Shown here in pieces: positions 3,096-59,538 of a stretch of DNA of 64,000 bases. The stretch lies in sequence record PQ567651.1. One strand, given 5' to 3'. Position 1 is the stretch's first letter. Each line of letters begins with the position of its first letter. The position numbers were made by a program, and so were the translations under genes. The notes under the pieces were generated by a model, which saw only the letters and a program-made list of their open reading frames with translations, searched no databases and was not told where the DNA came from. This DNA comes from Escherichia phage cardinal.

Positions 3096-3286
3096 TGTTC
3101 CTTATTTATTCAGGTAAAGCCAAATACATGCAAGGTGTAAAGCGTGTAGAAGTAGTAGATACTGTAACTATAGGAAAATCCTTTATTCTTTATCTGTTTT
3201 ATGTCAATGGAGAAAGATTTGCTGTTTCTAAGCAATTGGTAGATAAAGGTAAAACTTGGAAAGAAGAGAAACAGGAAGGGGGTTGA
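3095..3286 (+). CDS. hypothetical protein
   Basis: track ORF, colinear. Confidence 0.45.
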   Translation: MFLIYSGKAKYMQGVKRVEVVDTVTIGKSFILYLFYVNGERFAVSKQLVDKGKTWKEEKQEGG

Positions 3287-3288
3287 TA

Positions 3289-3630
3289 GTGGCTAAAATT
3301 CTTTGGTTAGACGATTTAAGAGATCCTAAAGATTATGGTTATGAGGATGCCATTTGGTTAAAATCTTTTGAGGATTGGTTATCTTTTGTTTCAGATGAAG
3401 ATAATTTCAATAATATCTCAGAGATACACTTCGATAATGATCTTGGAGAAGATCAAGAAGGATATCATGCGTTCTTAGACGTAGAATGTATGTTGTACGC
3501 GGGTGAATGGGATGCTCTTAAAACTATCTATGTTCATACATCAAATCCTTCTGCTGCTGGTAAATATATGTTAGCTAAGGAAAATTTTATTTCATCCTAT
3601 GGTATTGAAATTAAACGTGTTAACTATTAA
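3289..3630 (+). CDS. hypothetical protein
   Basis: GTG start after GGAAGGGGG RBS; track ORF starts at upstream TTG 3256. Confidence 0.5.
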   Translation: MAKILWLDDLRDPKDYGYEDAIWLKSFEDWLSFVSDEDNFNNISEIHFDNDLGEDQEGYHAFLDVECMLYAGEWDALKTIYVHTSNPSAAGKYMLAKENFISSYGIEIKRVNY

Positions 3631-45866: not shown

Positions 45867-46082
45867 TTAAACAGTATATTCGTGTGGAAGGAAAACATAG
45901 TCTTCTCCTTCAACAACATCAACTACTTCCCACTTCCAGCCAGGTACTTGGCTCATTGTCTTGAATGACACATAAGCAACTCCGCTGTAAGCGATATCGG
46001 CATCTAACATAAGAGGGAAAGCAACGTGTGTCAATCCCAGATAACCACAATTATTTTCAATACACACCTGAATGCTTTTCAT
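45867..46082 (-). CDS. hypothetical protein
   Basis: internal ATG of track ORF 45867..46127 just after upstream stop. Confidence 0.45.
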   Translation of the reverse strand: MKSIQVCIENNCGYLGLTHVAFPLMLDADIAYSGVAYVSFKTMSQVPGWKWEVVDVVEGEDYVFLPHEYTV

Positions 46083-46083
46083 G

Positions 46084-46542
46084 TTATGCTCCATTAAAGA
46101 CGGGGCGTGTAGCATTACGTTCATCATTCACTGTAATAAGGTTTTTCATAACCATAACACCCTGAATATAGCCTAACCAACGATGGCGTTTGGTTTCAGA
46201 CATACCATTACACCCATCCTGAATTTCATTCAACATCCACAGTAAGTGGGAAGCACCTGTTTCACTGGTATCTGGATCTTCTACAGAACTAAGAATCGTT
46301 TCATAGCGTTCACAAATTTCTGGGTAGAATTCATAATCCTGTTGTACATCTCGCATTTCTCGAATGAAGTGACGAGCAATAGGCTTCCCACGAAAATATT
46401 CATTGATGAAATCAATAACACACATCTCACTGCCTGTCACCACGGAAGGCGTTCCTATGTTAAATTGAACACTCACACCGCATTCTTTTACAAGATTATG
46501 TACACGCTCAGTGTTAGCAAGATACAAAGATACAGTTTTCAT
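46084..46542 (-). CDS. hypothetical protein
   Basis: track ORF, first gene of minus block. Confidence 0.5.
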   Translation of the reverse strand: MKTVSLYLANTERVHNLVKECGVSVQFNIGTPSVVTGSEMCVIDFINEYFRGKPIARHFIREMRDVQQDYEFYPEICERYETILSSVEDPDTSETGASHLLWMLNEIQDGCNGMSETKRHRWLGYIQGVMVMKNLITVNDERNATRPVFNGA

Positions 46543-47000
46543 TTACACCTCTCATTAGTAGTTTGTTATGCGCGATATTGCATATTTTATGGAACACAGT
46601 GTACAGACATTTCTATTCAATGCAAGCATTATTTGCATCTTATAAATTTACGTCTCATGCCACACATCATACAGCGTCTTTTCATCTATTACAAGAACAG
46701 CAACCTAGGAACATCATTAATGGAGGGATTAGTATAGGGATTAGTATAGGATTTCCCTATCAATTATTCTATATATACCTAATATTTTTAACACACCCCT
46801 TTGTACATAATATAGACAAATAAATATCTATGCCACAAAAATTTTCTGGTATACCCGATTTATTTCGACACACCCCCTTTTCATAAGCGTAAAGTCAATA
46901 ATATCAATAACTTGCCGCAAAATACTGCTCGCTTGCGAGAGGTGCTTAACGCGATTTTCAGCGCCCCCCCGATTTCTGCCGACCGTCCCCCTCAAATATC

Positions 47001-47037
47001 AATGAGAATAATTATCATTTGCATTATCATTCAATGA
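47001..47037. promoter_or_regulatory. Fur-box-like AT palindrome cluster
   Basis: aatgagaataattatcatttgcattatcattcaatga. Confidence 0.35.
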
Positions 47038-47198
47038 CTTATAAGACTTTTGATTATTTTCTGAGCAAGAAAGGTACTACTCACAACAAAACAGATAAAT
47101 TCTAAGTAAATCAATGGCTTGGCAAGTCTAAACATCTATATACACCTTGCCAAATGAAATGATCTGGCGTGAAATAGTGCCACCCGTGGAAGATAGCT

Positions 47199-47219
47199 GA
47201 TAATGATTATCATTTGCAT
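47199..47219. promoter_or_regulatory. Fur-box-like palindrome
   Basis: gataatgattatcatttgcat vs Fur box GATAATGATAATCATTATC. Confidence 0.4.
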
Positions 47220-47451
47220 ACTTTCTGTACTATAAAACCGACTAAAAATCAAGATAATTCTGATTTATTGCGCTTTTAAGAGAGTAGGCTCAACAAATAA
47301 CAACAAATGAGGTATGTTATAGGGGCAATAGTATGAAAAATCATCTATTCAGATGTAAATAATTTTGCGCAATAGTGGTAATATTTTTCTTGACAAGAAA
47401 GATTTCTTTGTGTGCACATAGCGCCCCTGGAGGGTGGCGCATTATGATCAT

Positions 47452-47505
47452 CAGTGTCATTATTCATTTCAGTGTCATTATTCATTTCAGTGTCATTATT
47501 CACCA
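47452..47505. repeat. 3 tandem copies of 18-bp unit cagtgtcattattcattt
   Basis: perfect copies 1-2, third diverges at end. Confidence 0.8.
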
Positions 47506-48120
47506 TGTTTATTATTGCATAGCTTATTATATGGAGCTTATATTATAGCCAATGTTCTAAACATTAGCTAATAATAACGCACCGCAACAATGTAAGGGAT
47601 ACAATATACCATGTATATTGTTGCGCTTGCAATTGTTGCAAGCTACATAAGCACAAATAATAACTATCGGTGATGGTTATTATGTGGGGTGTGTAGTTGC
47701 GTTATTATTAGCCGCCTATGTGTCCGGCATAGGCTGCTAATGATACGCTTGCGAATTATATTTCTTGTTATAGTTATTGTATGGAATGATTACTACATGA
47801 AATGGTTACTGTATGAAATGATTATCTAAGTAATAGATAGGAAGGTAAAGATTAGATCATAAATAGATAGGATGTGAATTATTTAGTAATGTTACTAACA
47901 ATTTAATAGTTACTTTGTGCAACAATTCGATAGATTATAATTGTAGTTTTAAGGGTTAGATAGATTATATTTAGCTTAGTAATGATTTATATTAGTTATT
48001 ATTGTTTAATACAATGTTATCAATGAGATAGTAACAGTAAGTTATAAATAAAGGTGAGATAATTAGTTTTAATTTAGTTAGATAACTTATTATTTTATAG
48101 GTTAGATGGTCTTAAGTTAA

Positions 48121-48196
48121 GAATGATTCTCATTATTGCATTATGCAATTTATTGCATAAATAATCAGCTATAAATAAGAATGATTATCATTTAAG
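48121..48196. promoter_or_regulatory. Fur-box-like palindromes
   Basis: gaatgattctcattattgcattatgcaat...aagaatgattatcatttaag. Confidence 0.35.
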
Positions 48197-48406
48197 AGGA
48201 AAGACAAGAAAAAGGCTGTTTTTGCCAGGTAATTACATGAAGAAATTAAAAATAAGCGGTCTAAAACACGTTGTAAGCGCCTTATGATCTTCATGGTATG
48301 GTTGTTCATCTGCTCCTTGATTAGCTCGATACCGCGATCTATTCACTTTTTTCGGTGAACGTTTTTGATAGGTAAAAGCTATCATCTTTATTTAGGTAAA
48401 AAGAAA

Positions 48407-48423
48407 GGGCGCAATAAGCGCCC
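48407..48423 (-). terminator. terminator hairpin gggcgc-aataa-gcgccc at end of minus block
   Basis: minus strand reads hairpin then TTTCTTTTT; same hairpin (opposite orientation) at 52283. Confidence 0.6.
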
Positions 48424-48439
48424 TTGTTTGAAATGTTAT

Positions 48440-48811
48440 TTACTGATAAGCTGGATCGTTTGTTATATCAATCCAATGAGATAAATTAATTTTATTTTTT
48501 GCTTTCATTTTCTCGATCAAACGTTCGGCTAATGTTTCTGAACGAATATAAACATGCTCGCTAAAATCTTGCCCCGTTTCTTCGTCGATCATTTCTCTAT
48601 ATTCAACCTTGCCGATAAACGCATAAGTTTTACCCGTGTACCAGTTATGTAAATGGATCTCGCATTTATAATCATCGCTATACCCTTCGGTTGTTCTAAC
48701 TTCAACCAAGTCACCTTTAAACACTGATAAGCACCACATAGGATCACGATCTACAGCGCCGTTAAAATCTTTACCGTTTACAGTAGCCGCCAGGTTGATG
48801 ATATTGCTCAT
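48440..48811 (-). CDS. hypothetical protein
   Basis: track ORF. Confidence 0.5.
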   Translation of the reverse strand: MSNIINLAATVNGKDFNGAVDRDPMWCLSVFKGDLVEVRTTEGYSDDYKCEIHLHNWYTGKTYAFIGKVEYREMIDEETGQDFSEHVYIRSETLAERLIEKMKAKNKINLSHWIDITNDPAYQ

Positions 48812-48886
48812 GGTGATTCCTCGTTTACCGTTTAAAATGATTTGCCCTACACGATAACTATAAGTTAACAGAGGCTATAAAGCAAG

Positions 48887-49117
48887 TTATTTTTCAAAAA
48901 ATTTTTCTACTGTGATATTCTTCCCAGTGGGATTAGCTACTTTCAAAATTTTATCATGTACTGGACGCCCAAAAGAATAAGATCCGTATACAGTAAACCA
49001 ATAATCACCGTCAGGCTGTACTATCACCGCTGCATAGGGTACGCCTTTTTCGTTATTGCTGACAGAATAGATCACATTGCCGTTAATAGCTTCAGCGCGT
49101 TTAATTTGTTCGATCAT
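48887..49117 (-). CDS. hypothetical protein
   Basis: track ORF. Confidence 0.5.
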   Translation of the reverse strand: MIEQIKRAEAINGNVIYSVSNNEKGVPYAAVIVQPDGDYWFTVYGSYSFGRPVHDKILKVANPTGKNITVEKFFEK

Positions 49118-49136
49118 GATATGATTCCTATATTGA

Positions 49137-49196
49137 GCGGGAAACCACTTCCCGCCTTACGTGATACATCTTAGTATAAGGGCGATCCGGTGTCAA
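49137..49196 (-). promoter_or_regulatory. promoter + stem-loop cassette (PeSL-like)
   Basis: minus: TTGACA-17-TAAGAT-GTATCAC..GGCGGGAAGTGGTTTCCCGC. Confidence 0.55.
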
Positions 49197-49324
49197 TAGG
49201 TAGAATTGTAAAGATTTGATAGTTTATTTCTTTGATGTTTTGTTATTTGATAGGTGGAAGCTATCAATATATAATAAGATCGTCCGGTGATTATCTTCCC
49301 CTGCTCCCAGGTGCCGCCCGTTCA

Positions 49325-49365
49325 ATAAGCATAACAAAAAACAGGACAAAAACAAGCCCTGTTTT
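49325..49365 (-). terminator. rho-independent terminator after 49373..49576
   Basis: minus: ACAGG-loop-CCTGT followed by TTTTTTGTT. Confidence 0.5.
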
Positions 49366-49372
49366 GTAAAGA

Positions 49373-49576
49373 TTAGATGATCTGCATATCCTCCACGATA
49401 ATTTCTAATTTCCAAACAAGATGATCTAAGCTCCCTGATAAAAATGATTCCGATACATAACCGCCATCTGACACCGTAGCAAGGATCTCGCCATTTGCTT
49501 GCTCTTTGATTTGAACATCCAGGCGGTTAGCCTTTGCTTTATTCAGGACGGCGATCAGGCGGTTAGCTGTAGTCAT
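49373..49576 (-). CDS. hypothetical protein
   Basis: track ORF. Confidence 0.5.
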   Translation of the reverse strand: MTTANRLIAVLNKAKANRLDVQIKEQANGEILATVSDGGYVSESFLSGSLDHLVWKLEIIVEDMQII

Positions 49577-49598
49577 GGTGTTTTCCTTCCAGTTGTGA

Positions 49599-49654
49599 GC
49601 GGCACTATTGCCGCCCTACGAAATACATTCTACCCGATTTATAATTGTTGTCAA
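49599..49654 (-). promoter_or_regulatory. promoter + stem-loop cassette (PeSL-like)
   Basis: minus: TTGACA-16-TAGAAT...GGCGGCAATAGTGCCGC. Confidence 0.5.
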
Positions 49655-49655
49655 A

Positions 49656-49925
49656 CTATTTTTTCAAGCTCGACCAGTCAAAACACGGGGCGATCTCGTT
49701 AAAACTTGTACCATGTAAAGCACATAATTTTTTAGCAATAGCCGCCGTAACCTGGCGTTGTACGCGCGGATCTGCTACTGATTGGAGAAAATAGGCGGTT
49801 TTATATGTGATCATGCTTTCGCCTGTTTCCTTGTTAACGTGGTGCACGGTTTTAGCCTTATCATCTTTTACCAGGGTGTAACCGGATTCGATGGCCTTGA
49901 TTGCAACGTCCAAAGATATTTTCAT
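49656..49925 (-). CDS. hypothetical protein
   Basis: track ORF. Confidence 0.5.
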   Translation of the reverse strand: MKISLDVAIKAIESGYTLVKDDKAKTVHHVNKETGESMITYKTAYFLQSVADPRVQRQVTAAIAKKLCALHGTSFNEIAPCFDWSSLKK

Positions 49926-49945
49926 GATTTACCTCTTTATTGACG

Positions 49946-49965
49946 GCGGGGAATACTCCCCCGCC
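49946..49965 (-). promoter_or_regulatory. leader stem-loop ggcgggg/ccccgcc
   Basis: GC hairpin of cassette family upstream of 49656..49925; no clear -35. Confidence 0.4.
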
Positions 49966-49972
49966 TTATTAA

Positions 49973-50143
49973 TTACTCTTCATCGTCGCCGTTATAGTAT
50001 TCAATGCCGTTTTCATCGGTTACAGTAATGTTAACGCCACCGATAGCAACACGATCACGGGCAAACGTCATGGCTTCATTTAAATCTTCAGACCAAAAAA
50101 TATTGTGACCTTTGCGCGATACATAAAACATAGTTGGGATCAT
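49973..50143 (-). CDS. small hypothetical protein
   Basis: 57 aa ORF filling gap between cassettes. Confidence 0.35.
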   Translation of the reverse strand: MIPTMFYVSRKGHNIFWSEDLNEAMTFARDRVAIGGVNITVTDENGIEYYNGDDEE

Positions 50144-50165
50144 GATTTGTTTCTCTTCTGTTGTG

Positions 50166-50226
50166 AGCGGGAAACCATTTCCCGCCCTATGTGATAAACT
50201 TTACTACGTTGTTTGCCTAGTGTCAA
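50166..50226 (-). promoter_or_regulatory. promoter + stem-loop cassette (PeSL-like)
   Basis: plus: gcgggaaaccatttcccgccctatgtgata...tgtcaa. Confidence 0.5.
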
Positions 50227-50227
50227 A

Positions 50228-50512
50228 TTATTTTTTAATGTTTTGCCCTACAAAATTGATCACTTCCTTAAGCTGTTTCTCAGTCATGATCGTGCCTGGT
50301 AATTCTTCTTTGATTTCTTCCGGTAGATAGATATTACCGCGCCAGGTTAATAAACAACCGTTTTGATCTTCGCAGATAGAATAAGAGAAGATCCACTCAT
50401 TATCATTCTCAAGCTCCCAAAAGCACAAAAAATCTTCTTTCCCTAAATTTTCAACGGTTAAACATAATCCGCGACGTGCTGCATAGTTGGAAAGTGCTTT
50501 TGTGATCTTCAT
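50228..50512 (-). CDS. hypothetical protein
   Basis: track ORF. Confidence 0.5.
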   Translation of the reverse strand: MKITKALSNYAARRGLCLTVENLGKEDFLCFWELENDNEWIFSYSICEDQNGCLLTWRGNIYLPEEIKEELPGTIMTEKQLKEVINFVGQNIKK

Positions 50513-50531
50513 AGCTTATCTCTTCTGTTAA

Positions 50532-50594
50532 GGCGGGGAAACCATTTCCCCGCTCTATGAGATACAATATACTATCTGTTAGGTGTGCTGTCAA
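50532..50594 (-). promoter_or_regulatory. promoter + stem-loop cassette (PeSL-like)
   Basis: plus: ggcggggaaaccatttccccgc...tgtcaa. Confidence 0.5.
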
Positions 50595-50918
50595 TCAATA
50601 ATCTTTAAGATTTTCTACATTTACAAAAGTGCGTTTATTTTCTAAGTTTTCGCCGTACCATTGCCCCATGTTGATTTCTGCGGTGCGCAACCAGGACATG
50701 CCGCGCTCTATCTTTTTACTTGCAATCTCGATCCGGCTTTTGCATAGTGCTTTCGCTTGCAATGTAAAAACACTATTGCCCTGTAATGCTTCCAGGTCAT
50801 CATGTGCAAGGCGATACTCTTTAAAGCCTGATTCTATCATTTCAATAGCATCAAGTAAACGCGCGCGATGATAGAAAAAATCAGAGTTATCCAAATAAAC
50901 ACCGATCACAGATTTCAT
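50595..50918 (-). CDS. hypothetical protein
   Basis: track ORF, internal ATG start. Confidence 0.45.
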   Translation of the reverse strand: MKSVIGVYLDNSDFFYHRARLLDAIEMIESGFKEYRLAHDDLEALQGNSVFTLQAKALCKSRIEIASKKIERGMSWLRTAEINMGQWYGENLENKRTFVNVENLKDY

Positions 50919-51247
50919 AATTTTACCCTTTTGTTTGCGGCCTTTGCCGTTTTCAAGATATAGTTTAAAGCATAACAAAAAATTGTCAAGCCTTTAAAGC
51001 GTACAACTATAAAACCTATTAAAACACAATGTATAACAACATGGCTATAGTAGCAATACAACATAAAGCCATGCTTGTTTTCCTTCCTTCCTCGTATGCT
51101 GGATTTATTACGCTATATTGTACGGGAATAATTTTCATGCTGTTTCCTTAATGTCTTAAAACGTGGTTTACAATAGAAACAAGCATACAGAAGAAAAAAG
51201 ATCCTGTCAATAAGATACCGAAAAATAAATGTAAATAGGGCATGGTT

Positions 51248-51550
51248 TTACTCCTTAAAAAAATCATTGACAATTAAACTGATAACGCCCAGCACCAGAT
51301 CACCAGGTAGTGCCGCGCTTTCGTTGTTGCTTGTTTGCACTTCCTCACTAGTACCAGCACGATAGATTGCATGGTAAGCAATAGTATAATAACCTTTCGT
51401 TATTTCTTTAAGATTAATGATTAGCACGTTATTTGTTTCATCTTGAAACAATTTAGCGGTGATAGTATTGTTTTCTTTTACACTATCGACTTTTATTGAT
51501 GGATCATTTACACCAGAAAAAAGAAAAAACGTTTTAGCTATGCCGTTCAT
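51248..51550 (-). CDS. hypothetical protein
   Basis: track ORF. Confidence 0.5.
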   Translation of the reverse strand: MNGIAKTFFLFSGVNDPSIKVDSVKENNTITAKLFQDETNNVLIINLKEITKGYYTIAYHAIYRAGTSEEVQTSNNESAALPGDLVLGVISLIVNDFFKE

Positions 51551-51597
51551 GTAGTTCTCCTTTGTTGTGTGTATCTTATAACGTGCTTTCTATGTTG

Positions 51598-51999
51598 TCA
51601 ATCTTTTATCTCGGTGCATTTTGCCAGGGTATACGTTGCAAGTGCTGACACTAGTTTTTCATTGCTACGATCTGCGGCTGTACTGTGTACTTTTTGAATA
51701 CTTTTTAACCACGGCGTAAAATTTTGAGTAGTCAGCACACTGGTAATAATTTCACATGGCACATCTTCATTTAAGCCGTTAACAATAGATTTATCTATTT
51801 TTGCCGTTAGTTGTGTAACAGCACCATAAGCGATCATGTGTGAATCCTCCATGATTTCATCGGGGATCGCATTATTAATAAGCATGACGTTTTCCATTGC
51901 ATCAACGGCGCTTAATTCTGCTACTGTGGAGGATATCGCCGCGCTAGATGTTCCAACCATGCCAAAAGAGATTAAACCAGCGATCAATAATTTTTTCAT
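51598..51999 (-). CDS. secreted protein with signal peptide
   Basis: MKKLLIAGLISFGMVGTSSAA signal-peptide-like. Confidence 0.5.
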   Translation of the reverse strand: MKKLLIAGLISFGMVGTSSAAISSTVAELSAVDAMENVMLINNAIPDEIMEDSHMIAYGAVTQLTAKIDKSIVNGLNEDVPCEIITSVLTTQNFTPWLKSIQKVHSTAADRSNEKLVSALATYTLAKCTEIKD

Positions 52000-52007
52000 T
52001 TCTTGCC

Positions 52008-52190
52008 TCATATATGTTTTATTGAGATTATATTGTCACTATATACAACGTTTTTCAACGTGTCAATAAAAATCTTATTGCCTTCAATCCCCAGGATCAC
52101 GCCGCTAGTTATGAAGCCATATTGATCACGATATCGGGCGCATAACCTTTGCCCCTGGGCTAGTGCCTTGCTTATTTCGTCTAATTTCAT
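52008..52190 (-). CDS. hypothetical protein
   Basis: track ORF. Confidence 0.45.
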   Translation of the reverse strand: MKLDEISKALAQGQRLCARYRDQYGFITSGVILGIEGNKIFIDTLKNVVYSDNIISIKHI

Positions 52191-52282
52191 TTTTAAAGCT
52201 CCTGTAAAGCCGTCTAACGTTGATTTATAGGCTTATCCTGGCGTTACCATTGCCTATGGGTAACAAGCCTCTATATAAGCTA

Positions 52283-52310
52283 AAAGGGCGCTTATTGCGC
52301 CCTTTTTTGT
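52283..52310. terminator. bidirectional terminator hairpin gggcgc-ttatt-gcgccc
   Basis: aaaagggcgcttattgcgcccttttttg. Confidence 0.55.
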
Positions 52311-52447
52311 TATTCGTTCCAGTATCTTTTTGTGCTGCGATCTCTTTTTGTTTTGTTCCGCTTGTCGCCTTTTTTGGTGATCTCTTCGTTCCAATTTTTA
52401 CGCGCCTTGCTGCGGTTGAATTTTTCGATCTGCTGTGATGCGTTCAT
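52310..52447 (-). CDS. small basic protein
   Basis: 45 aa ORF with AAGAGGAAG RBS. Confidence 0.3.
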   Translation of the reverse strand: MNASQQIEKFNRSKARKNWNEEITKKGDKRNKTKRDRSTKRYWNE

Positions 52448-52462
52448 GTTTCTTCCTCTTAA

Positions 52463-52822
52463 TTACGCCACGTTATGCTGTTTTGCCAGGATTACGATCA
52501 TGCTTGCAATATATAACCAATAATTTTCCCGCTCACGGGTAACGGTTGTTTCTTTGCTTGTTTCTTTTATGTACTTCCATTCAATTAACAAGTGATCGAT
52601 CTCGTTATAATCAAAAGCAATATTGATTTCTGACGGTAAACCTTGTAACCAGGAGGCTATCGCCTTGATCATGTTGTGATTGTAACGTTTTTGATTATCG
52701 GGATACCAGTATTCAGATGTAAAACGGCGCATCAGTTCGGTGATCTTTTCTTTTTCTGTTGTAGTACCCTCAAAAGAAATAGCCGACACAATGTAAGTTT
52801 TAATTGCTTTTACTGATTTCAT
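52463..52822 (-). CDS. hypothetical protein
   Basis: track ORF. Confidence 0.5.
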   Translation of the reverse strand: MKSVKAIKTYIVSAISFEGTTTEKEKITELMRRFTSEYWYPDNQKRYNHNMIKAIASWLQGLPSEINIAFDYNEIDHLLIEWKYIKETSKETTVTRERENYWLYIASMIVILAKQHNVA

Positions 52823-52842
52823 AATCTTATCTCTTTATTGTT

Positions 52843-52901
52843 GGCGGGAAACCATTCCCCGCCGTTGTTGTTACTTTACTTATAAATGATGCTACTGTCA
52901 A
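52843..52901 (-). promoter_or_regulatory. promoter + stem-loop cassette (PeSL-like)
   Basis: plus: ggcgggaaaccattccccgcc...tgtcaa. Confidence 0.5.
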
Positions 52902-52908
52902 ACGGATA

Positions 52909-53079
52909 TTATTTGTTTTTTAACGTTAATGTTCCCAGCTTATCAGCGTGACGCAGACCAGGAAAGATCCATTTTCCTGATTCATCTTTTACCGGGGCTT
53001 TAAGCGTAGCGCCCAGGTTGGCGGCATTAACTTTACGTGCAACGTTGCGAGCGGCTTCACGGGTAGCGAAAGTGATCAT
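52909..53079 (-). CDS. small hypothetical protein
   Basis: 56 aa ORF with GAAGAGGAAA RBS. Confidence 0.35.
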   Translation of the reverse strand: MITFATREAARNVARKVNAANLGATLKAPVKDESGKWIFPGLRHADKLGTLTLKNK

Positions 53080-53103
53080 GATGTTTTCCTCTTCTCTTTG
53101 TTA

Positions 53104-53188
53104 GGCGGTGGGCTATTCCACCGCCTTGATGAATACAGTTTACTTTATTTTTGCAGTATTGCAAGCGGTTTTATGAAATAAATGTCAA
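53104..53188 (-). promoter_or_regulatory. stem-loop + TTGACA element (cassette variant)
   Basis: plus: ggcggtgggctattccaccgcc...tgtcaa. Confidence 0.4.
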
Positions 53189-53386
53189 AGTAAAATCATA
53201 ATCTTTTGACAGTTTATATTGCACCTTGTTACCGTATATGTCACCTTTACGTAAAGATCCGCGAATACCTATTACATCCTTTACATCTTTAAGATTTTTC
53301 ACGCCTGTAATGTCTTTATTGAAATGATCGTGATCAGAAAATAAAACCTGCTTTGCATTTTTTAACAGTGTGCGGATATTAGCCAT
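53171..53386 (-). CDS. hypothetical protein
   Basis: track ORF. Confidence 0.5.
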   Translation of the reverse strand: MANIRTLLKNAKQVLFSDHDHFNKDITGVKNLKDVKDVIGIRGSLRKGDIYGNKVQYKLSKDYDFTLTFIS

Positions 53387-53407
53387 TTGATAATCTCTCT
53401 TACTAGG

Positions 53408-53464
53408 GGCGGCACTATTGCCGCCCTATGCATTACATTTTACTGATTTTAGTTATCTTGTCAA
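53408..53464 (-). promoter_or_regulatory. promoter + stem-loop cassette (PeSL-like)
   Basis: plus: ggcggcactattgccgcc...tgtcaa. Confidence 0.5.
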
Positions 53465-53472
53465 TATTATTT

Positions 53473-53700
53473 TTAGTTTAATTGATCCAGGCACAACAAG
53501 CGATCAACATTCAGATCGGTTAGGCTAATCGTTGGCACCTGGTAGGATTCGATGTACTCAACGCTCGACCATTGCCCGAAGTTAGCGACCGCCCAGCTAT
53601 TCAAGGAAGAGTGAAGATCATCCCCTTTCTTCTCGGTGATAACTGCTACTACCTGGGAGCTTCCAACCGTACCGGATACGCGAACAATAACGATAGCCAT
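53473..53700 (-). CDS. hypothetical protein
   Basis: track ORF. Confidence 0.5.
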   Translation of the reverse strand: MAIVIVRVSGTVGSSQVVAVITEKKGDDLHSSLNSWAVANFGQWSSVEYIESYQVPTISLTDLNVDRLLCLDQLN

Positions 53701-53722
53701 AATGATAACCTTTCTTTGATTT

Positions 53723-53782
53723 GGCGGGAAACCATTTCCCGCCCTATGTGATATATCTTACACTAATTTAAAACGTTGTCAA
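53723..53782 (-). promoter_or_regulatory. promoter + stem-loop cassette (PeSL-like)
   Basis: plus: ggcgggaaaccatttcccgccctatgtgatatatctta...tgtcaa. Confidence 0.55.
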
Positions 53783-53877
53783 ATTATTTTCTATTTCTTC
53801 CGTAATAGCCCAATTTATGATCTAAGCTAAAACGTTTTGTGAGATAGGTCGAACGATGTTTCATTTTTATGTCTCCT

Positions 53878-54117
53878 TTACATTCCAACCATAGCGGCAC
53901 GGATCGCGGTTTTACTGAACTTGAATCCGTCTGGCGTTTTATCTTGATCCATACTTTCAAGAAATAACATCATATCCCGCGCTGCGTCATTCTTATTGGT
54001 GTTAGCTGCGATAAATTCACGCGCAAGATTATAAAAACCTTCATCGTTGTTGATCCAAAGGCTTACATTCCAATGAGTTTTGTTTTTGTGACCTAAGAAC
54101 ATTTTAGATTTAGCCAT
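53878..54117 (-). CDS. hypothetical protein
   Basis: track ORF. Confidence 0.5.
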   Translation of the reverse strand: MAKSKMFLGHKNKTHWNVSLWINNDEGFYNLAREFIAANTNKNDAARDMMLFLESMDQDKTPDGFKFSKTAIRAAMVGM

Positions 54118-54141
54118 GATGTTAATCTCTTTTTCAGTGAG

Positions 54142-54199
54142 GCGGGAACTATTCCCGCTCTCGATATAAGTATTATATGCTTTTTATTCGTGCTGTCAA
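54142..54199 (-). promoter_or_regulatory. promoter + stem-loop cassette (PeSL-like)
   Basis: plus: gcgggaactattcccgc...tgtcaa. Confidence 0.5.
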
Positions 54200-54205
54200 T
54201 GCTTT

Positions 54206-54571
54206 TTATAAATCTTTTTTACGTTTAACATCGCTTGCATGACTGTATACAGCGATCCCATTATCACGGCAAAAACGGGAAAGATACGCGCCGCGTGAAA
54301 ACTCTTTGCCCTCCAGGTTGATAACCTTGCTAAACTCTTCCAGGGCGACGGTATCAAAATGATCCCCATAACCATATTGAAACGGAACGTTAACGACTTC
54401 AATCAGTTTACCGCCGATCTCAACGTCAACCATCAAAGAGAAATAAGTATTACCATAAGACTTTTGAAACCAGCGACGGGCGCTAATATGTACCGCTTCA
54501 ATGCTGGATAGTTCAATTTTAGCAGTGTTAGCCAGGGTAGCATAAGCAGAAACATTGATATTTTTAGCCAT
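54206..54571 (-). CDS. hypothetical protein
   Basis: track ORF; preferred over overlapping 54196..54402. Confidence 0.5.
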   Translation of the reverse strand: MAKNINVSAYATLANTAKIELSSIEAVHISARRWFQKSYGNTYFSLMVDVEIGGKLIEVVNVPFQYGYGDHFDTVALEEFSKVINLEGKEFSRGAYLSRFCRDNGIAVYSHASDVKRKKDL

Positions 54572-54666
54572 AGTCTTTAATCTCTTTTGATTAGTTAGGA
54601 GTATTCCCGATAAAAGTTATTATGCTTGTACTATCGTTCGTTGTCAATAGCACAAGACTAAAACTT

Positions 54667-54848
54667 TTAACGATAATCATCATAGGCTTTATTGACCTGG
54701 CGAATATAGCATTCAAAAGCTAGATCAATAGATTTATATTCACGGATATAATCACCATAGGAAACCACATACATTTCTATAGCTTCCTCATATGCCAGGA
54801 TGATAGAATCTAAACCTACGATCTCAGTCTTTGCAATAATAGCCATGC
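54667..54848 (-). CDS. small hypothetical protein
   Basis: 59 aa ORF with TAAGGAA RBS. Confidence 0.35.
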
Positions 54849-54932
54849 TTTTATTCCTTAGTAATGTTTCAATCTATATAAGCATTATAGCTTACTGATT
54901 TCAGGTGTCAAGTGATTTTTTATTTCACCTTA

Positions 54933-54989
54933 TGGGGCGTTGCCCCGCTTTATGTGGTACATATTACGGGGCTTGTTCGCATATGTCAA
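54933..54989 (-). promoter_or_regulatory. stem-loop + TTGACA element (cassette variant)
   Basis: plus: ggggcgttgccccgc...tgtcaa. Confidence 0.4.
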
Positions 54990-54992
54990 GCC

Positions 54993-55547
54993 TTACACAA
55001 GACAATTTTCATAATTTTTTAGGGCTTGTCTTTTTTCCTCTTCCGTCGGCATGTATGGCTGGATCTCTTCCTCTTCCAGGGTAGGCATGATTTCTTCCTC
55101 TTCCTCCTGGTCGTCCTGGTCTTCCTCTTGCGCTACTGCAACAAGTTTATTGATCTTCTCCTGGGCTTTAATCAATTTTGCATCTAGCACCATTTTAGCG
55201 GTGTTGTATACCGTCCATGCCATGCGTTTTTCTTCGTATGCTTTATCTAGTGCGGCTAATTTAGCGGGATACTCTTCCAACACCTTAAAAGCCGGATCAA
55301 TGCTGTATAAGGGATTATTTTTAGCGTCATCGCTTGGATCTGCGGCGCTTGCAATGTCAGCGTTGCCATTCGCCAGCCATCCAGGGCGAACGGATCGCGC
55401 CTTTGTGTTGCCGTTGCTCTTTGCCGCTCGATTTCCTATCTGCTCCCCGCTATACCCTACCATGTGATCGATCATGTCATCTGGTATTATGCGCGGATCA
55501 TTAGCGTCATGCTTTACCCAGGACTGGATCACATATTCACGCCCCAT
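54993..55547 (-). CDS. hypothetical protein with acidic C-terminus
   Basis: track ORF. Confidence 0.5.
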   Translation of the reverse strand: MGREYVIQSWVKHDANDPRIIPDDMIDHMVGYSGEQIGNRAAKSNGNTKARSVRPGWLANGNADIASAADPSDDAKNNPLYSIDPAFKVLEEYPAKLAALDKAYEEKRMAWTVYNTAKMVLDAKLIKAQEKINKLVAVAQEEDQDDQEEEEEIMPTLEEEEIQPYMPTEEEKRQALKNYENCLV

Positions 55548-55809
55548 GTTCGTTCGCCTCTTCTGTTAGTAGTTTACATACCTTAAACATGCTTGCCGCG
55601 TCTTTTGACGGTAGCCAGCCTATGCGATACACTCCAGGATCTGGATTCGTTATATCTGTTAATTGAGCGTTACGATGATTAAAAATAGTGTAACCGCCGC
55701 CAGCACGGGGATAAACATTATCTTTAAACCTGATAGCGTATCTCGCCAGGTTGAACGTTGTAGCATGTTCAAAAGCGATCACATTATCAAAAACTTTTAG
55801 AAAAAACAA
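55537..55809 (-). CDS. hypothetical protein
   Basis: track ORF. Confidence 0.5.
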   Translation of the reverse strand: MFFLKVFDNVIAFEHATTFNLARYAIRFKDNVYPRAGGGYTIFNHRNAQLTDITNPDPGVYRIGWLPSKDAASMFKVCKLLTEEANEHGA

Positions 55810-55810
55810 G

Positions 55811-55957
55811 ATTATCCTCCCCAGCGTTTAAAGCCCGTTGCACGGTTATTTTTTAACTCTCGTTTTAGTCTCTTGCAACGGTTTACAAGTGCAAACCGTG
55901 CCGGAGTGGTAACAGTAGCGCCGTTTTTGGTGTGAATACTCATTACATATTGTTTCA
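55811..55957 (-). CDS. small basic protein
   Basis: 48 aa ORF with AGGA RBS. Confidence 0.3.
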
Positions 55958-55976
55958 TAAAGTTTTATCCTATGTA

Positions 55977-56030
55977 AGCGGGAACTATTCCCGCTTTAAG
56001 ATAGCTTATCAGGTTTTAGTGCAATGTCAA
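55977..56030 (-). promoter_or_regulatory. promoter + stem-loop cassette (PeSL-like)
   Basis: plus: gcgggaactattcccgctttaagatagc...tgtcaa. Confidence 0.5.
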
Positions 56031-56036
56031 CCGTTT

Positions 56037-56399
56037 TTATTCGTAAATTTTACCGCTTTCTACCCATACCATAACGCGGCGCATATTATCCCATGCATCT
56101 TGTCGCAGATTTAAGGCATGCAATTCTTCGGTTGTGCTCATACCTGGTACGGGCTTGCTATATGTTACAAAGAGATCGCCAGCATATTCATAAGCCAGGG
56201 TAAGATCACATTGAATCATCTTTTTAAGCATAGCATTAAGCATCATATTAGCGGCATGTTGATCACGTTTTAGCGGTAGCGTTGCGATCTGTGAGCGATA
56301 GCTTTCGATCCGTGCATCCACTGCATCACGTGGAAGATTTTTCACGTCGTCGCGGAAAGATACCAGGTTTAACATGATAGTATTGATTTGCTTGCTCAT
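56037..56399 (-). CDS. hypothetical protein
   Basis: track ORF. Confidence 0.5.
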   Translation of the reverse strand: MSKQINTIMLNLVSFRDDVKNLPRDAVDARIESYRSQIATLPLKRDQHAANMMLNAMLKKMIQCDLTLAYEYAGDLFVTYSKPVPGMSTTEELHALNLRQDAWDNMRRVMVWVESGKIYE

Positions 56400-56424
56400 T
56401 GTGTTACCCTTTCTTTGATGGCCT

Positions 56425-56484
56425 GGCGGGAAACCATTTCCCGCCCTATGTGATACATCTTATCAGATTAAAAAACGTTGTCAA
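56425..56484 (-). promoter_or_regulatory. promoter + stem-loop cassette (PeSL-like), best consensus copy
   Basis: minus: TTGACA-16-TAAGAT-GTATCACATAG-GGCGGGAAATGGTTTCCCGCC, about 25 nt before ATG. Confidence 0.6.
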
Positions 56485-56503
56485 GAATATTTTTTAGATA
56501 ATT

Positions 56504-56785
56504 TTAACTATATGATCCACATTGTTCGCAGTAGTGATCATCGTCGCCATCAGCTACCTGGCTGATAAAGTGATCTACTTTTGCTTTTAGGTTATTATAA
56601 TTGTTTTCTACTTCCTTTAATCGCTCCTGATAGTAGCCCAGGGCTTTAATATACGCCGCCTCTTCTGTTTTTTCACGCATGGCTAAATTCATGCCGCGCG
56701 TATCATCATACAGCCAAAAGCCATCGGTACATTCACTCATTGAAAGGGTAGGGCTTAACTCTTTATGATTAATTACCTTGCTCAT
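56504..56785 (-). CDS. hypothetical protein
   Basis: track ORF, internal ATG start; C-terminal CEQCG. Confidence 0.45.
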   Translation of the reverse strand: MSKVINHKELSPTLSMSECTDGFWLYDDTRGMNLAMREKTEEAAYIKALGYYQERLKEVENNYNNLKAKVDHFISQVADGDDDHYCEQCGSYS

Positions 56786-56796
56786 AGTGTGCGCCT

Positions 56797-56901
56797 TATA
56801 GAATGATTGAAACAACAATTGCTACAGTGATCCACACTGGAACGGCTAACAAAATAGCGTTAATCGTTCCAACCGTCAAGCTGTTTTCTTTCTTGATCAT
56901 C
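56797..56901 (-). CDS. small membrane peptide
   Basis: 34 aa hydrophobic ORF with AAAAGG RBS. Confidence 0.3.
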
Positions 56902-57169
56902 GTTATCAACCTTTTATAAGTAATGTTATTGTGACGGTGGATTGTGGAGATCCTCACCTTTGCCCGTCCTGCATTGCGCCCTCCTTTTGTTTATTGTCGT
57001 TGTGCCTCGCCCCCCTCGACAAGATGAATAATACGCTACCAGGTGAGGAACGTCAACCCCTTTTTTAATCTTTTTTTCATTTCTTTTTTTTGCTTGCTAT
57101 CTATAAAGGAAAGGGCTATTATCTTTCTACCACGCCAACCAGGGCGCACATCAAAGAAAGGGCGATACC

Positions 57170-57436
57170 ATGACAAATACTACTTTACACCTCATGCACT
57201 CATTAGGCTGGCAAGGCGGCACGGTGCACCAGGTAGCAAGCGCAACGGGCTTAAAGGTTGAAACCGTTCTCAACCTGGGCGATCATAAGGTGGAAGAAAT
57301 AGATCATTTTGATACGTTCGCAAATGGTTATCTATGGGCTTGCAGTGGCGGCGGGGAAAGCAAGATCCCACCAGGGGCGCGGGGTGATATATATTTTTGG
57401 TTAGGTGTCCTATCCTGGCAAGAAAACAAAAAATAA
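57170..57436 (+). CDS. hypothetical protein
   Basis: track ORF. Confidence 0.5.
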   Translation: MTNTTLHLMHSLGWQGGTVHQVASATGLKVETVLNLGDHKVEEIDHFDTFANGYLWACSGGGESKIPPGARGDIYFWLGVLSWQENKK

Positions 57437-57438
57437 TA

Positions 57439-57467
57439 TTGACAAGCCCAGGGATCGGGCTTATACT
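57439..57467 (+). promoter_or_regulatory. sigma70-like promoter TTGACA-17-TATACT with palindromic spacer
   Basis: TTGACAagcccagggatcgggctTATACT. Confidence 0.5.
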
Positions 57468-57586
57468 GTTTTACATACAGAAGAGGAAGCGCCACCCCCA
57501 CGGCGTAAAGGCGGGGCTAACATACCAGGGCACTACTGGTTGGAAGGTTGATCGCTGGTACAACGTATTTACAAAGGAGGTTAGCA

Positions 57587-58180
57587 ATGAAAAAAGTTTT
57601 TGGAGTAGGCATTAACGATAGTGCAAAGCCGATCAAAGGTTGTCGATTCTATGCAACATGGCGCAACATGTTACAACGTTGTTATAGTGAATCATATCAG
57701 GACAAAAGGCCATCTTATAAAGGTTGTAGTGTTTGTGATGAATGGTTGACGTTTAGCACTTTTCGTGCTTGGATGGAACAGCAGGATCACCAGGGAAAAC
57801 AATTAGATAAAGATATAATAACACCGGGTAATAAACTCTATTGTCCTGATCGTTGCGTATTTGTAACGCAAGAAATGAATAGTTTGTTAACAGTTACAAA
57901 GAGTAACAAAGGGGATCATCCTTTGGGTGTTTCATTTTTGAATCATAAACCATTGCCGCGCCCTTATTTAGCAACAATACGTTATAATAACGTAGTGGAA
58001 AGATTAGGGTACTATGTAGATCCTTTATCCGCTCATTTGGCCTGGAATAGGCGCAAACGTGAAATAATCATAGAGATTATTAGTAATGAAACGGATTCAA
58101 GGATCGCCGCTGGCTTGGCTTTACGTGTTGACGCTCTCGATCTGGCTTATGAAAATAAAGCGGAAATAACTTGCTTATGA
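57587..58180 (+). CDS. putative homing-endonuclease-like DNA-binding protein
   Basis: ATG after AAGGAGG; N-terminal FYATWRNMLQRCYSESY...GCSVCDEW motif and AP2-like GVSF...RLGYY segment. Confidence 0.4.
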   Translation: MKKVFGVGINDSAKPIKGCRFYATWRNMLQRCYSESYQDKRPSYKGCSVCDEWLTFSTFRAWMEQQDHQGKQLDKDIITPGNKLYCPDRCVFVTQEMNSLLTVTKSNKGDHPLGVSFLNHKPLPRPYLATIRYNNVVERLGYYVDPLSAHLAWNRRKREIIIEIISNETDSRIAAGLALRVDALDLAYENKAEITCL

Positions 58181-58183
58181 CGC

Positions 58184-58212
58184 TTGACAAGCGCCCGACA
58201 AGGGCGCATAAT
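58184..58212 (+). promoter_or_regulatory. TTGACA + palindrome + CATAAT element at start of non-coding region
   Basis: cTTGACAagcgcccgacaagggcgCATAATc. Confidence 0.4.
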
Positions 58213-58436
58213 CTCTTACATAGACAGGAACGCCTACCAATGGCGCTAAACTTGGTGATGATAGCCGCAGGGCATCGACAGCTATAATCGCCGGTAGCTC
58301 GTCTAAAATAAATTTGTAAAGAAATGTAAAGATAAAAATAATCGCTTGCTTTTGTTGTTGGTTATGCTATTCTTATTGTATGGCGAGGGGACACGGGAGC
58401 GCGAGACAAACACCGCCCCTGCGCGTTATTTTCTAA

Positions 58437-58546
58437 ATGAGAAAATTCTCATTTGCTAATGATTCTCATTCTCTTACTGAGAATGATTATCACTTACATA
58501 ATTAAATGATAATGATTCTCATTTACAAATGAGAATGATTATCATA
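58437..58546. promoter_or_regulatory. cluster of Fur-box-like palindromes
   Basis: repeated aatgattctcatt / gagaatgattatcat units. Confidence 0.4.
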
Positions 58547-58569
58547 CGCATACCTATAAAAACACGAAA

Positions 58570-58766
58570 TTGAACTTTTCATTTTTGATTTTTCTACGGA
58601 AAAAGGCAAAAAAACTTTAAATAAACTGGGGAATTTTTAAAAAATTGAAGTTTTCATTTTCAAAATCTGGATAGAAATACGTACAAAAACTTTAAATAAT
58701 TTTGACCAAACTTGAACTTTTCATTTTCAAAATTTGTACCCAAAAATCTGTAAAAACTTTAAATAA
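58570..58766. repeat. 3 direct repeats of ~55-bp unit TTGAACttttcattttcaaaat...aaaaactttaaataa
   Basis: three similar units at about 70-bp period. Confidence 0.7.
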
Positions 58767-59082
58767 TTTTGTACTTTTTATAAAAATGATTTTACTGTTC
58801 TGTTATAAGTAGTAGTTAAGAGATAGTATGCCTTTTAAAGATCAGATACCATAGTCAAACAAACAAATTAAATACTTTATTAACAGAGTACAGAATAATA
58901 TTTACTCTGGATATATTATTCAGAGGGTGGATTTCCGTACATGAAACCCACACCCCTTTTTATAAAAATAAAAATTTTCAAAATATCAGTAAATATCAGA
59001 TTGTGCTTTTAGATAAACAGCAAGGTCTGTATGCCATTTTCCTAAAAGATTTTGTCCTTTCCAACAGTCCTTATTTTCCACA

Positions 59083-59538
59083 TCACGATCCCACATTCCC
59101 ATTTTTGATACCATAAATAGAATCATAAGGGCTTGCCTCTACGAACTCCTTATCTGCGTAAGCGATAAGTTTATTTTTGAGATCTTCATTTTGTGTGTAT
59201 TTAAGATACAAACCACGTTTGACAATCTTCTCCCGTAAAGAAGTCCAGGTATCTTCATCATAATCTTTAACTAATCTGCCTAGACGTTTATAATATGCTT
59301 GTTCTTTTTCTCCTGTATATCTTAGATCTCCGGTTAAAATAGAAGATGCAATATTGTAATCATAAAACAAACATGCTTTTCTCCACATCATATATTGTTC
59401 CACACAAGTAAATTCGACAGAACTTGTGATAGAATTATTATACTTGGGAGCTAAAGGTTCAATAAAAGATGATAGATACCAGTTGCTAAATTCATCTTTT
59501 GCCGAGAAAAAGAACACATACTTGTCAGTAATCCGCAT
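59083..59538 (-). CDS. NADAR (YbiA-like, DUF1768) domain protein; C-terminus apparently frameshifted
   Basis: FTCVEQYMMWRKACLF, RLGRLVKDYDEDTW, EFVEASPYDSIYGI match NADAR; conserved C-terminal WKGQNLLG lies in +1 frame. Confidence 0.6.
   Translation of the reverse strand: MRITDKYVFFFSAKDEFSNWYLSSFIEPLAPKYNNSITSSVEFTCVEQYMMWRKACLFYDYNIASSILTGDLRYTGEKEQAYYKRLGRLVKDYDEDTWTSLREKIVKRGLYLKYTQNEDLKNKLIAYADKEFVEASPYDSIYGIKNGNVGS

Follow-up and report, generated by a model that had tools for sequence, protein, structure and literature searches.

A block of 26 small genes occupies positions 48440-56900 of the 64,000-nucleotide (nt) stretch of Escherichia phage cardinal (sequence record PQ567651.1) that we analyzed as a whole and refer to here as the window. 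Our data suggest that this block is probably the right-terminal early accessory-gene region of the phage, driven by the host RNA polymerase and exchanged gene by gene among related phages. As judged from the listing of open reading frames (ORFs) and inspection of start codons, the 26 genes are consecutive, lie on the minus strand, encode proteins of 31-184 amino acids (aa) and cover 78% of the region. The original prediction of about 25 ORFs of 26 to 184 aa, made from the sequence alone, was thus essentially right. Position and promoters plausibly fit early accessory genes transcribed by host RNA polymerase. The genes as such are already known, all of them being deposited as "hypothetical protein" in hundreds of genomes. 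New are the uniform order of a promoter followed by a 5' hairpin, the restriction of this architecture to the terminal block, and its presence in jumbo coliphages, including a homologous unit of gene plus cassette.

Defining a strict promoter as TTGACA-N16-18-TAnnnT, we identified 16 sigma-70 promoters on the coding strand in 8.7 kb, compared to 0.19 in shuffled sequences and a single one on the opposite strand. Twelve cassettes with a GC-rich hairpin are present in 49137-56445. In 11 of these, a promoter accompanies the hairpin, with the -10 element 6-14 nt upstream of it (ten strict promoters and one with the -35 element TTGCAA), and the twelfth consists of the hairpin alone. The stems are perfect, GC-rich and have 6-9 base pairs (bp), the commonest hairpin being GGCGGGAAA-tgg-TTTCCCGCC; downstream of each hairpin follows an A-rich stretch with a ribosome-binding site, and then the ATG. 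For any one promoter, such a hairpin would arise by chance with a probability of at most 1.6%. Among strict minus-strand promoters outside the block, none of the ten in the window is followed by such a hairpin, and the window hairpins outside the block are ordinary AAAGGGGC...GCCCCTTT terminators. In other words, within the window the promoter-hairpin architecture is confined to the terminal block. The cassette-flanked organization that had been proposed for these genes is confirmed.

Comparative data support that the hairpins are conserved as structures. In RNA folds of the 5' untranslated regions, about 5 unpaired nt are followed by a hairpin of -13 to -19 kcal/mol (z scores of -2.5 to -6.3), and the Shine-Dalgarno (SD) sequence is single-stranded. 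Across 31 distinct cassettes, 93.5% of stem cells are paired, a fraction inflated by the selection of this set for hairpin presence, compared to 38-65% in slid controls. Double, i.e. compensatory, stem changes were observed 43 times as opposed to 18 in shuffles, and none of 500 shuffles reached 43. The two A-U pairs closing the loop and the loop itself (UAG/UGG) are nearly invariant (columns 16-17 and 21-22 of the alignment), while the outer stem covaries. Cassettes recur in the same block of all 11 relatives, with 9-16 cassettes each and 30 distinct stems, and a query with the cassette sequence matched 136 phage records with 2-8 copies each, nearly all of them Stephanstirmvirinae.

Based on these observations, we propose the following mechanism. 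Unmodified host RNA polymerase would fire all block promoters immediately after DNA entry and, with many promoters fired in this way, each gene would represent an autonomous expression unit. Because the hairpin has a fixed position past the predicted start and lacks a U-tract, it would form the 5' end of the gene's own mRNA, lying 3-5 nt from the end of each transcript. There, its main role may be to stabilize and insulate the 5' terminus against RNase E decay that depends on the 5' end, with the ribosome-binding site kept accessible, as we propose by analogy with ompA and the T7 gene 10 leader. The conserved cassettes of ~80 nt would also provide homology for gene-by-gene replacement among co-infecting phages, similar to what has been suggested for the promoter-early stem-loop (PeSL) cassettes. 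Finally, the proteins made from the block (three membrane peptides and one periplasmic protein besides small cytoplasmic ones) would target the host, and takeover, counter-defence and superinfection exclusion would be their likely roles. We also weighed three other functions of the hairpins and discarded them. Stems of only 6-9 bp speak against RNase III processing sites, the loops lack the GGA of CsrA sites, and a role as intrinsic terminators in the sense direction is at odds with the purine-rich, rather than U-rich, stretch that follows every hairpin.

A related alternative is that the hairpins are terminators or attenuators that stop or damp read-through from upstream and thereby restrict the expression of each gene to its own promoter. 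The cassettes are intergenic and lie between tandem genes, the annotators of Paula, PATM and ASO2A labelled these hairpins "terminator", and the drop in lacZ expression caused by a PeSL stem-loop equalled that caused by the rrnB T1 terminator (PMC2839356). However, the hairpin is always downstream of the promoter that accompanies it, and the transcript of that promoter would be hit equally. Moreover, there is no U-tract on the coding strand, where the downstream sequence is A/G-rich, and a consensus terminator scan of this strand does not find the cassette hairpins; it finds only the intrinsic terminators at 48405-48425, which ends the block and is annotated as a terminator in Paula and PATM, at 49338-49365 after the third gene from the terminus, and at 52282-52306, which is bidirectional and splits the block. 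For these reasons, we regard a terminator or attenuator function as a rather unlikely explanation.

The hairpin, or the corresponding palindrome in the DNA, could also be recognized by a specific factor through which all genes of the early block are turned on or off in concert. Such a factor would recognize the conserved features, i.e. the GAA-UAG-UUC or GAAA-UGG-UUUC loop region and the ATCACATAG leader. It might be a phage RNA-binding regulator or antiterminator, for which the very basic 45-56-aa proteins g13, g15 and g23 are candidates (we number the genes g01 to g26 by increasing coordinate), or alternatively a repressor bound to the DNA palindrome at approximately +5 to +25. This idea accounts for a nearly invariant loop with its closing A-U pairs on top of a covarying outer stem and for the occurrence of the same loop motifs in unrelated jumbo phages, and a site just past the start is suited to an operator or a nut/put-like element. 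On the other hand, there are at least six stem/loop classes, including GCGGCA-atag, GGCGGTGG-aatagc, GGGGC-aac and GGGGCG-acaag, which argues against a single sequence-specific reader, and family searches detected no homology of any candidate regulator with N, with Q or with a known RNA-binding fold. We consider a dedicated switch of this kind improbable.

The proposal of a host-driven early block is also based on its position in the genome. By sequence comparison, the source phage is a phi92-like myovirus (Justusliebigvirus, subfamily Stephanstirmvirinae) and not, as had been implied, a T4-type phage. Megablast of the 48440-56900 region matched 280 phage records with ESCO9 and Paula (98%), alia, VEcB and PaulScherrer (Bas60), all of the genus Justusliebigvirus, at the top. 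Identity to ESCO9, Paula and alia is 94-98%, and the close relatives matched by the region all belong to the Stephanstirmvirinae. The block corresponds to phi92 gp225-gp248 and to bas60_0114-0144 in PaulScherrer (Bas60), and orthologues of its genes, where present, are in the same order with 84-100% protein identity. These relationships leave hardly any room for the idea that the block is a hyperplastic region of the T4 type and contains true PeSL elements. While g01 is in the T4 gp30.8 family and the cassette has the PeSL ingredients (sigma-70 promoter, stem-loop and SD), the phage type is refuted by the close relatives, and the stem-loop is fixed downstream of the -10 element, unlike in RB49, phi1 and PST.

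In phi92, the genome has direct terminal repeats of 343 bp. The left end of phi92 (1-556) maps to window positions 47290-46736 and the start of the right-end repeat to 46947; because both ends map near 46947-47290, the window crosses the physical genome ends. Window positions 46948-47290 are the single-copy equivalent of the phi92 343-bp terminal repeat and separate the right arm, at higher coordinates, from the left arm, at lower ones. The block is the final coding stretch of the right arm with transcription directed at the terminus, and it ends at the strong terminator 48405-48425, approximately 1.1 kb from the terminal repeat. At its start, next to an oppositely oriented plus-strand gene, is the first promoter (57028-57056, minus strand; TTGACG-N17-TATTAT with an A-rich tract upstream), which faces away from a plus-strand promoter-like site before the gene at 57170-57436. 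The leader of ~125 nt after the first promoter is unusually GC-rich (56957-57027) and contains a 6-codon mini-ORF (ATGCAGGACGGGCAAAGGTGA) behind the strong ribosome-binding site AAGGAGG.

Gene content in the block is hypervariable, and mosaic in the presence/absence matrix, even among phages that are 95-98% identical. For instance, g03 is present in two of the 11 relatives, g25 in three with a partial copy in a fourth, and g20 is missing from five; phi92 has a megablast coverage of the region of only 44%. Phage cardinal has a gene combination of its own: it carries g03 and g25, both absent from most of its Justusliebigvirus relatives, and is devoid of phi92 gp243-246. The g03 cassette of cardinal stands before another gene in Paula and ESCO9. 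The ends of BLAST segments form 38 clusters, of which 18 lie within cassettes, whose share of the region is 13% (p = 4e-7), and nearly all remaining clusters are on a start or stop codon. Thus, the data show gene-by-gene exchange, while the cassette as the site of crossover is not proved.

Exchange of this type may extend beyond the subfamily. One case is g20, with its 94% DNA identity to rV5-like Vequintavirus phages. The gene g18 together with its entire cassette (53878-54199) is common to the jumbo phages PBECO4 (3001-3320) and 121Q with ~78-85% DNA identity, and one stem pair in the cassette differs from PBECO4 by a compensatory change (C-G to U-A). These Asteriusvirus phages are of another lineage and, apart from the directly homologous DUF7249 unit of g18, their genes are unrelated to those of the block. 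Nevertheless, they have arrays of the same architecture with 4-7 copies per 6-10 kb, in which TTGACA or TTGCAA, a spacer of N16-18, TATAAT, ~12 nt, a hairpin, an SD and the ATG follow in this order, and the hairpins are of the same type (GGGGAGAA-tag-TTCTCCCC or GTGGGGAA-tag-TTCCCCAC). The same architecture and a homologous unit in unrelated jumbo coliphages suggest that early accessory genes cross phage families in a form that is ready to be expressed. Taking this further, we speculate, with considerable reservation, that promoter, 5' hairpin and SD form a mobile expression cassette in its own right, one that passes between phage families, has a hairpin top that is read by a specific factor setting the fate of early mRNA, and carries new host-directed effectors. 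The range of such a cassette would include the Stephanstirmvirinae, the jumbo phages of Asteriusvirus and, as single copies, rV5-like phages; the factor, from host or phage, would target the nearly invariant GAA-UAG-UUC or GAAA-UGG-UUUC hairpin top; and candidates for effectors would be the widespread g19 family, the potentially partner-dependent g21 and the near-orphan secreted g11.

Most of the 26 ORFs have a purine-rich SD upstream, and no paralogues were found in an all-against-all comparison of the 26 proteins. The ratio of non-synonymous to synonymous changes (pN/pS), calculated from orthologues in 11 related phages, is between 0.00 and 0.46, i.e. below 0.5, for every ORF and 0.25 when pooled. 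By this measure, all 26 ORFs are under purifying selection, with the changes in g08 and g09 being too few to judge. The block is, therefore, conserved among its relatives, and the lack of conservation that the original prediction had named as a reason to dismiss it was not observed. Accordingly, we see almost no prospect that many of the small ORFs are chance ORFs of AT-rich spacer DNA. Several of them have only 31-48 aa, g08 and g09 have too few substitutions for testing, and the annotators of phi92 flagged gp237, the orthologue of g13, for "weak prodigal statistics"; however, the ORFs are on a single strand, have SD sequences, fill 78% of the region and have low pN/pS values throughout, and g13 is above the Pfam threshold for T7 gp1.1.

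The proteins remain, as proposed, a collection of unknown function, and neither Pfam, PHROGs nor NCBIfam provided a molecular function. Contrary to the statement that none has a recognizable motif, three are clearly above the Pfam thresholds: g01 matches PF06019 (Phage_30_8; E 3.8e-24, 85.4 bits with a cut-off of 25; residues 3-116 on model positions 2-123 of 124), g13 matches PF08200 (Phage_1_1, T7 gp1.1; E 8.8e-11, 42.5 bits with a cut-off of 21; residues 5-44 on model positions 2-40 of 40) and g18 matches PF23907 (DUF7249; E 8e-12, 46.4 bits with a gathering score of 27). A fourth match, of g25 to PF06279 (DUF1033), is borderline (25.8 bits with a gathering score of 25; E 1.3e-5). These four families, none with a known function, were the only ones found with Pfam over all or most ORFs, and an NCBIfam scan of the same scope gave zero matches. 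PHROG families were assigned to 23 of the 26 ORFs, all of "unknown function" except for one bare "membrane protein" label. Sequence, profile and structure searches matched no ORF to a characterized protein, a solved structure or a curated family with a function, and PDB sequence searches with g01, g11, g19 and g21 as well as family profile searches with g19 and g21 gave no match. Thus, the remote homology searches and structure prediction that had been recommended added four families, one of them borderline, but neither a function nor a structure match.

Some proteins have informative features nonetheless. The predicted signal-peptide protein (MKKLLIAGLISFGMVGTSSA/AIS) is g11, for which the orthologue in the phi92 record carries a SignalP signal peptide annotation. 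It is rare, with one cluster among 5.8 billion proteins and 7 representatives among 1.84 billion. The expected membrane peptides are represented by three products dominated by a single hydrophobic segment (51019-51138, 51148-51243 and 56796-56900). The g19 family has the motifs RRWFxKxYGNTYF, YGYGDHY and DVKRKKDL. g21 is found only in phages of ~150 kb. Its AlphaFold2 model has a predicted local distance difference test score of 68, with low values for residues 1-80, which are the most conserved part, high values for the helical hairpin of residues 85-150, and an acidic tail; such a pattern is consistent with folding that depends on a partner.

Several points weigh against our proposal of a host-driven early block with exchangeable genes and 5'-terminal hairpins. 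In addition to the selection bias in the covariation set, the hairpin might still be an attenuator, because a PeSL stem-loop without an obvious U-tract terminated transcription in a reporter assay. If only intergenic breakpoints are considered, 14 of 21 are in cassettes as opposed to 52% expected (p = 0.14; 11 genomes) and, therefore, a specific recombinogenic role of the cassette is unproven; selection against gene disruption would yield the same breakpoint pattern. Both the "early" timing and the 5'-terminal position of the hairpin are predictions from promoter geometry alone, and we found no transcription start sites, RNA sequencing or proteomics for the phi92-like group in the literature. 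Lastly, structure prediction for g19 and g21 yielded no informative match, and no protein function backs a role in takeover or anti-defence.

In the direction of transcription, and with all genes and cassettes on the minus strand, the block begins with g26 (56796..56900), which encodes a 34-aa membrane peptide (hydropathy 2.72) and is followed by the patchily distributed g25 (56504..56785; 93 aa) with its borderline DUF1033 match. The next gene, g24 (56037..56399; 120 aa), is phi92 gp227, described in the phi92 record as a relative of rV5 gp179; its cassette at 56400..56484 has TTGACA-N16-TAAGAT, the commonest hairpin GGCGGGAAA-tgg-TTTCCCGCC and an SD. The cassette at 55959..56030 with the hairpin AAGCGGGAA-tag-TTCCCGCTT precedes g23 (55812..55958; 48 aa; phi92 gp228), which has an isoelectric point (pI) of 11.7 and 20 synonymous changes versus 0 non-synonymous. 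The start of g21 (54993..55547; 184 aa; phi92 gp230), the protein with the conserved N-terminal region, helical hairpin and acidic tail, is overlapped by g22 (55537..55809; ~86-90 aa; phi92 gp229). After these come g20 (54667..54846; 59 aa), which is patchy and has 94% DNA identity to Vequintavirus (rV5-like) phages, and g19 (54206..54571; 121 aa), which is more strongly conserved than any other gene of the block and belongs to a widespread uncharacterized phage family.

The DUF7249 gene g18 (53878..54117; 79 aa), shared with its cassette by PBECO4 and 121Q, is preceded at 54118..54199 by TTGACA-N16-TATAAT and the hairpin GCGGGAA-tag-TTCCCGC. Promoter and hairpin are likewise present at 53701..53782 in front of g17 (53473..53700; 75 aa; phi92 gp233). 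The cassette of g16 (53171..53386; 71 aa) is at 53387..53464 with the hairpin GGGCGGCA-atag-TGCCGCCC, and that of g15 (52909..53079; 56 aa, basic, and 96-100% conserved across all 11 relatives) is at 53080..53165 and combines the -35 element TTGCAA with the hairpin AGGCGGTGG-aatagc-CCACCGCCT. At 52823..52901, promoter and hairpin precede g14 (52463..52822; 119 aa; phi92 gp236), and the very basic g13 (52310..52447; 45 aa; phi92 gp237; pI 10.5) of the T7 gp1.1 family is the last gene before the mid-block terminator. Beyond it are g12 (52008..52190; 60 aa; phi92 gp238), the near-orphan g11 for the secreted protein (51598..51999; 133 aa; phi92 gp239; pN/pS 0.04), g10 (51248..51550; 100 aa; phi92 gp240), which has a hydrophobic C-terminus, and two genes for membrane peptides. 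Of the latter, g09 (51148..51243; 31 aa, hydropathy 2.35) has the strong SD TAAGGAG and is annotated in PaulScherrer, and g08 (51019..51138; 39 aa) has a hydrophobic C-terminal segment (maximum hydropathy 2.59) and belongs to phrog_10979, "membrane protein".

For g07 (50595..50918; 107 aa; phi92 gp241), the start at ATG 50918 is favoured over an upstream TTG. Promoter-hairpin cassettes at 50513..50594 and 50144..50226 precede g06 (50228..50512; 94 aa; phi92 gp242; phrog_6147; pN/pS 0.09) and g05 (49973..50143; 56 aa, acidic; phrog_20874; 27 synonymous versus 3 non-synonymous changes), respectively. The hairpin-only element without a consensus promoter (49926..49972) is upstream of g04 (49656..49925; 89 aa), which has no PHROG match. 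Cassettes with promoter and hairpin are again present at 49577..49654 before g03 (49373..49576; 67 aa), which among the 11 relatives occurs only in PD06 and nepoznato, and at 49118..49196 before g02 (48887..49117; 76 aa; phi92 gp247; phrog_9227; pN/pS 0.24). The last gene before the genome terminus is g01 (48440..48811; 123 aa; phi92 gp248; phrog_1507; pN/pS 0.08), which is T4 gp30.8-like.

Two labels in GenBank deserve comment. No family search supports "phosphoribosylpyrophosphate synthetase" for g16, which is found in several records, and g24, a "membrane protein" in some records, is not hydrophobic by hydropathy; both look like propagated mis-annotations. Two named factors of Stephanstirmvirinae were considered as possible products of the block and rejected. 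Atd1 is a MazG-like pyrophosphatase and is encoded elsewhere, no ORF of the block having a MazG domain, and Ksap2, the trigger of Avs2, is Bas60_220 and, therefore, outside bas60_0114-0144. We found no data on block genes in the literature using Bas60. No tRNAs were found in the window, and an Rfam scan of 46000-59500 detected nothing near any gathering score.

The surroundings of the block have features of their own. The block-end and mid-block terminators are near-identical copies in inverted orientation (48397-48425 and 52284-52312; 29 nt, 93% complementary). Just upstream of the block, an HNH endonuclease gene on the plus strand (57548-58180; phrog_953, E 4e-82) is within a 726-bp segment (57561-58286) that is absent in 10 of 11 relatives, in which 57560 is joined straight to 58287; in PD06 the locus ends earlier. 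The segment looks like a recent homing-endonuclease insertion. Eight copies of the 13-bp palindrome AATGATTATCATT with at most one mismatch (47007, 47202, 48122, 48180, 58458, 58482, 58511 and 58534) are all in the two AT-rich non-coding flanks of the block, two of them within the terminal repeat. The palindrome is close to the Escherichia coli Fur box, with 4 matches to GATAATGATAATCATTATC at up to 3 mismatches versus 0.03 expected, and control by iron/Fur, an origin or a packaging signal are possibilities. Two non-coding repeats are also present: a tandem repeat adjoining the terminal repeat (47440-47502; ~3.5 copies of the 18-bp unit CATTATTCATTTCAGTGT), and three copies of ~70 nt at 58567-58787 that are annotated as repeat_region in alia and muut. 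Finally, the block of this E. coli phage has ~94% identity to 19 records named "Campylobacter phage" (e.g. A145 and C3). These matches are odd for the stated host and suggest mislabelled or contaminating phi92-like genomes.

If our proposal is correct, the block represents a bounded 8.5-kb library of 26 independently expressed accessory genes in the therapeutically used phi92-like group, and a target list for toxicity and counter-defence screens. Each gene would come with a strong, portable unit of promoter and 5' untranslated region, and the block would, thus, be a source of well-insulated expression parts. Cassettes that cross phage families would extend the PeSL idea past T4-like phages without introducing a new principle.

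PeSL cassettes were described in the hyperplastic regions of T4-like phages, where they were proposed to function in modular gene shuffling, with recombination giving rise to excised mini-circles (Arbiol 2010 PMC2839356; Comeau 2014 PMC4122927). The position of their stem-loop varies: most stem-loops of RB49 and phi1 lie between the promoter hexamers or overlap with them, a place just downstream of the -10 element is rare, and in the PST set the stem-loop is, according to the figure legend, upstream of the promoter (PMC2839356; PMC4122927). The cassettes reported here are similar in design, i.e. an intergenic unit of ~80 nt with a near-consensus sigma-70 promoter, a GC-rich stem-loop, an SD and the ATG. 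In both systems, these units flank small orphan genes, and gene content differs among close relatives. Indels in the hyperplastic regions are bounded by the cassettes; in the block, 18 of 38 breakpoint clusters are in cassettes, with no significant enrichment inside intergenic DNA (p = 0.14). However, the phage studied here is from an unrelated subfamily, the Stephanstirmvirinae, and not a T4-like myovirus, and its stem-loop is always 6-14 nt downstream of the -10 element, has no U-tract and is part of a uniform order of promoter, hairpin and ribosome-binding site. For phi92-like, rV5-like or 121Q-like phages, we found neither descriptions of these cassettes nor a transcriptome in the literature.

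The host-takeover module of SPO1, the pre-early region of T5 and the class I genes of T7 consist of small genes near a terminal-repeat end that have strong host-type promoters and are expressed first. The block follows this theme in that it clusters small genes near a terminal repeat with multiple strong host-type promoters; by contrast, there is no sequence relationship to these modules except for that of g13 to T7 gp1.1. In T7, the early mRNAs are separated by RNase III sites, while the stems of the block, with 6-9 bp, are too short for this enzyme. The hairpin of the ompA 5' untranslated region and the T7 gene 10 leader are 5'-terminal stabilizing stem-loops. Similarly, the cassettes have a stable hairpin a few nt from the 5' end, which in this case is a predicted one, followed by a single-stranded ribosome-binding site.

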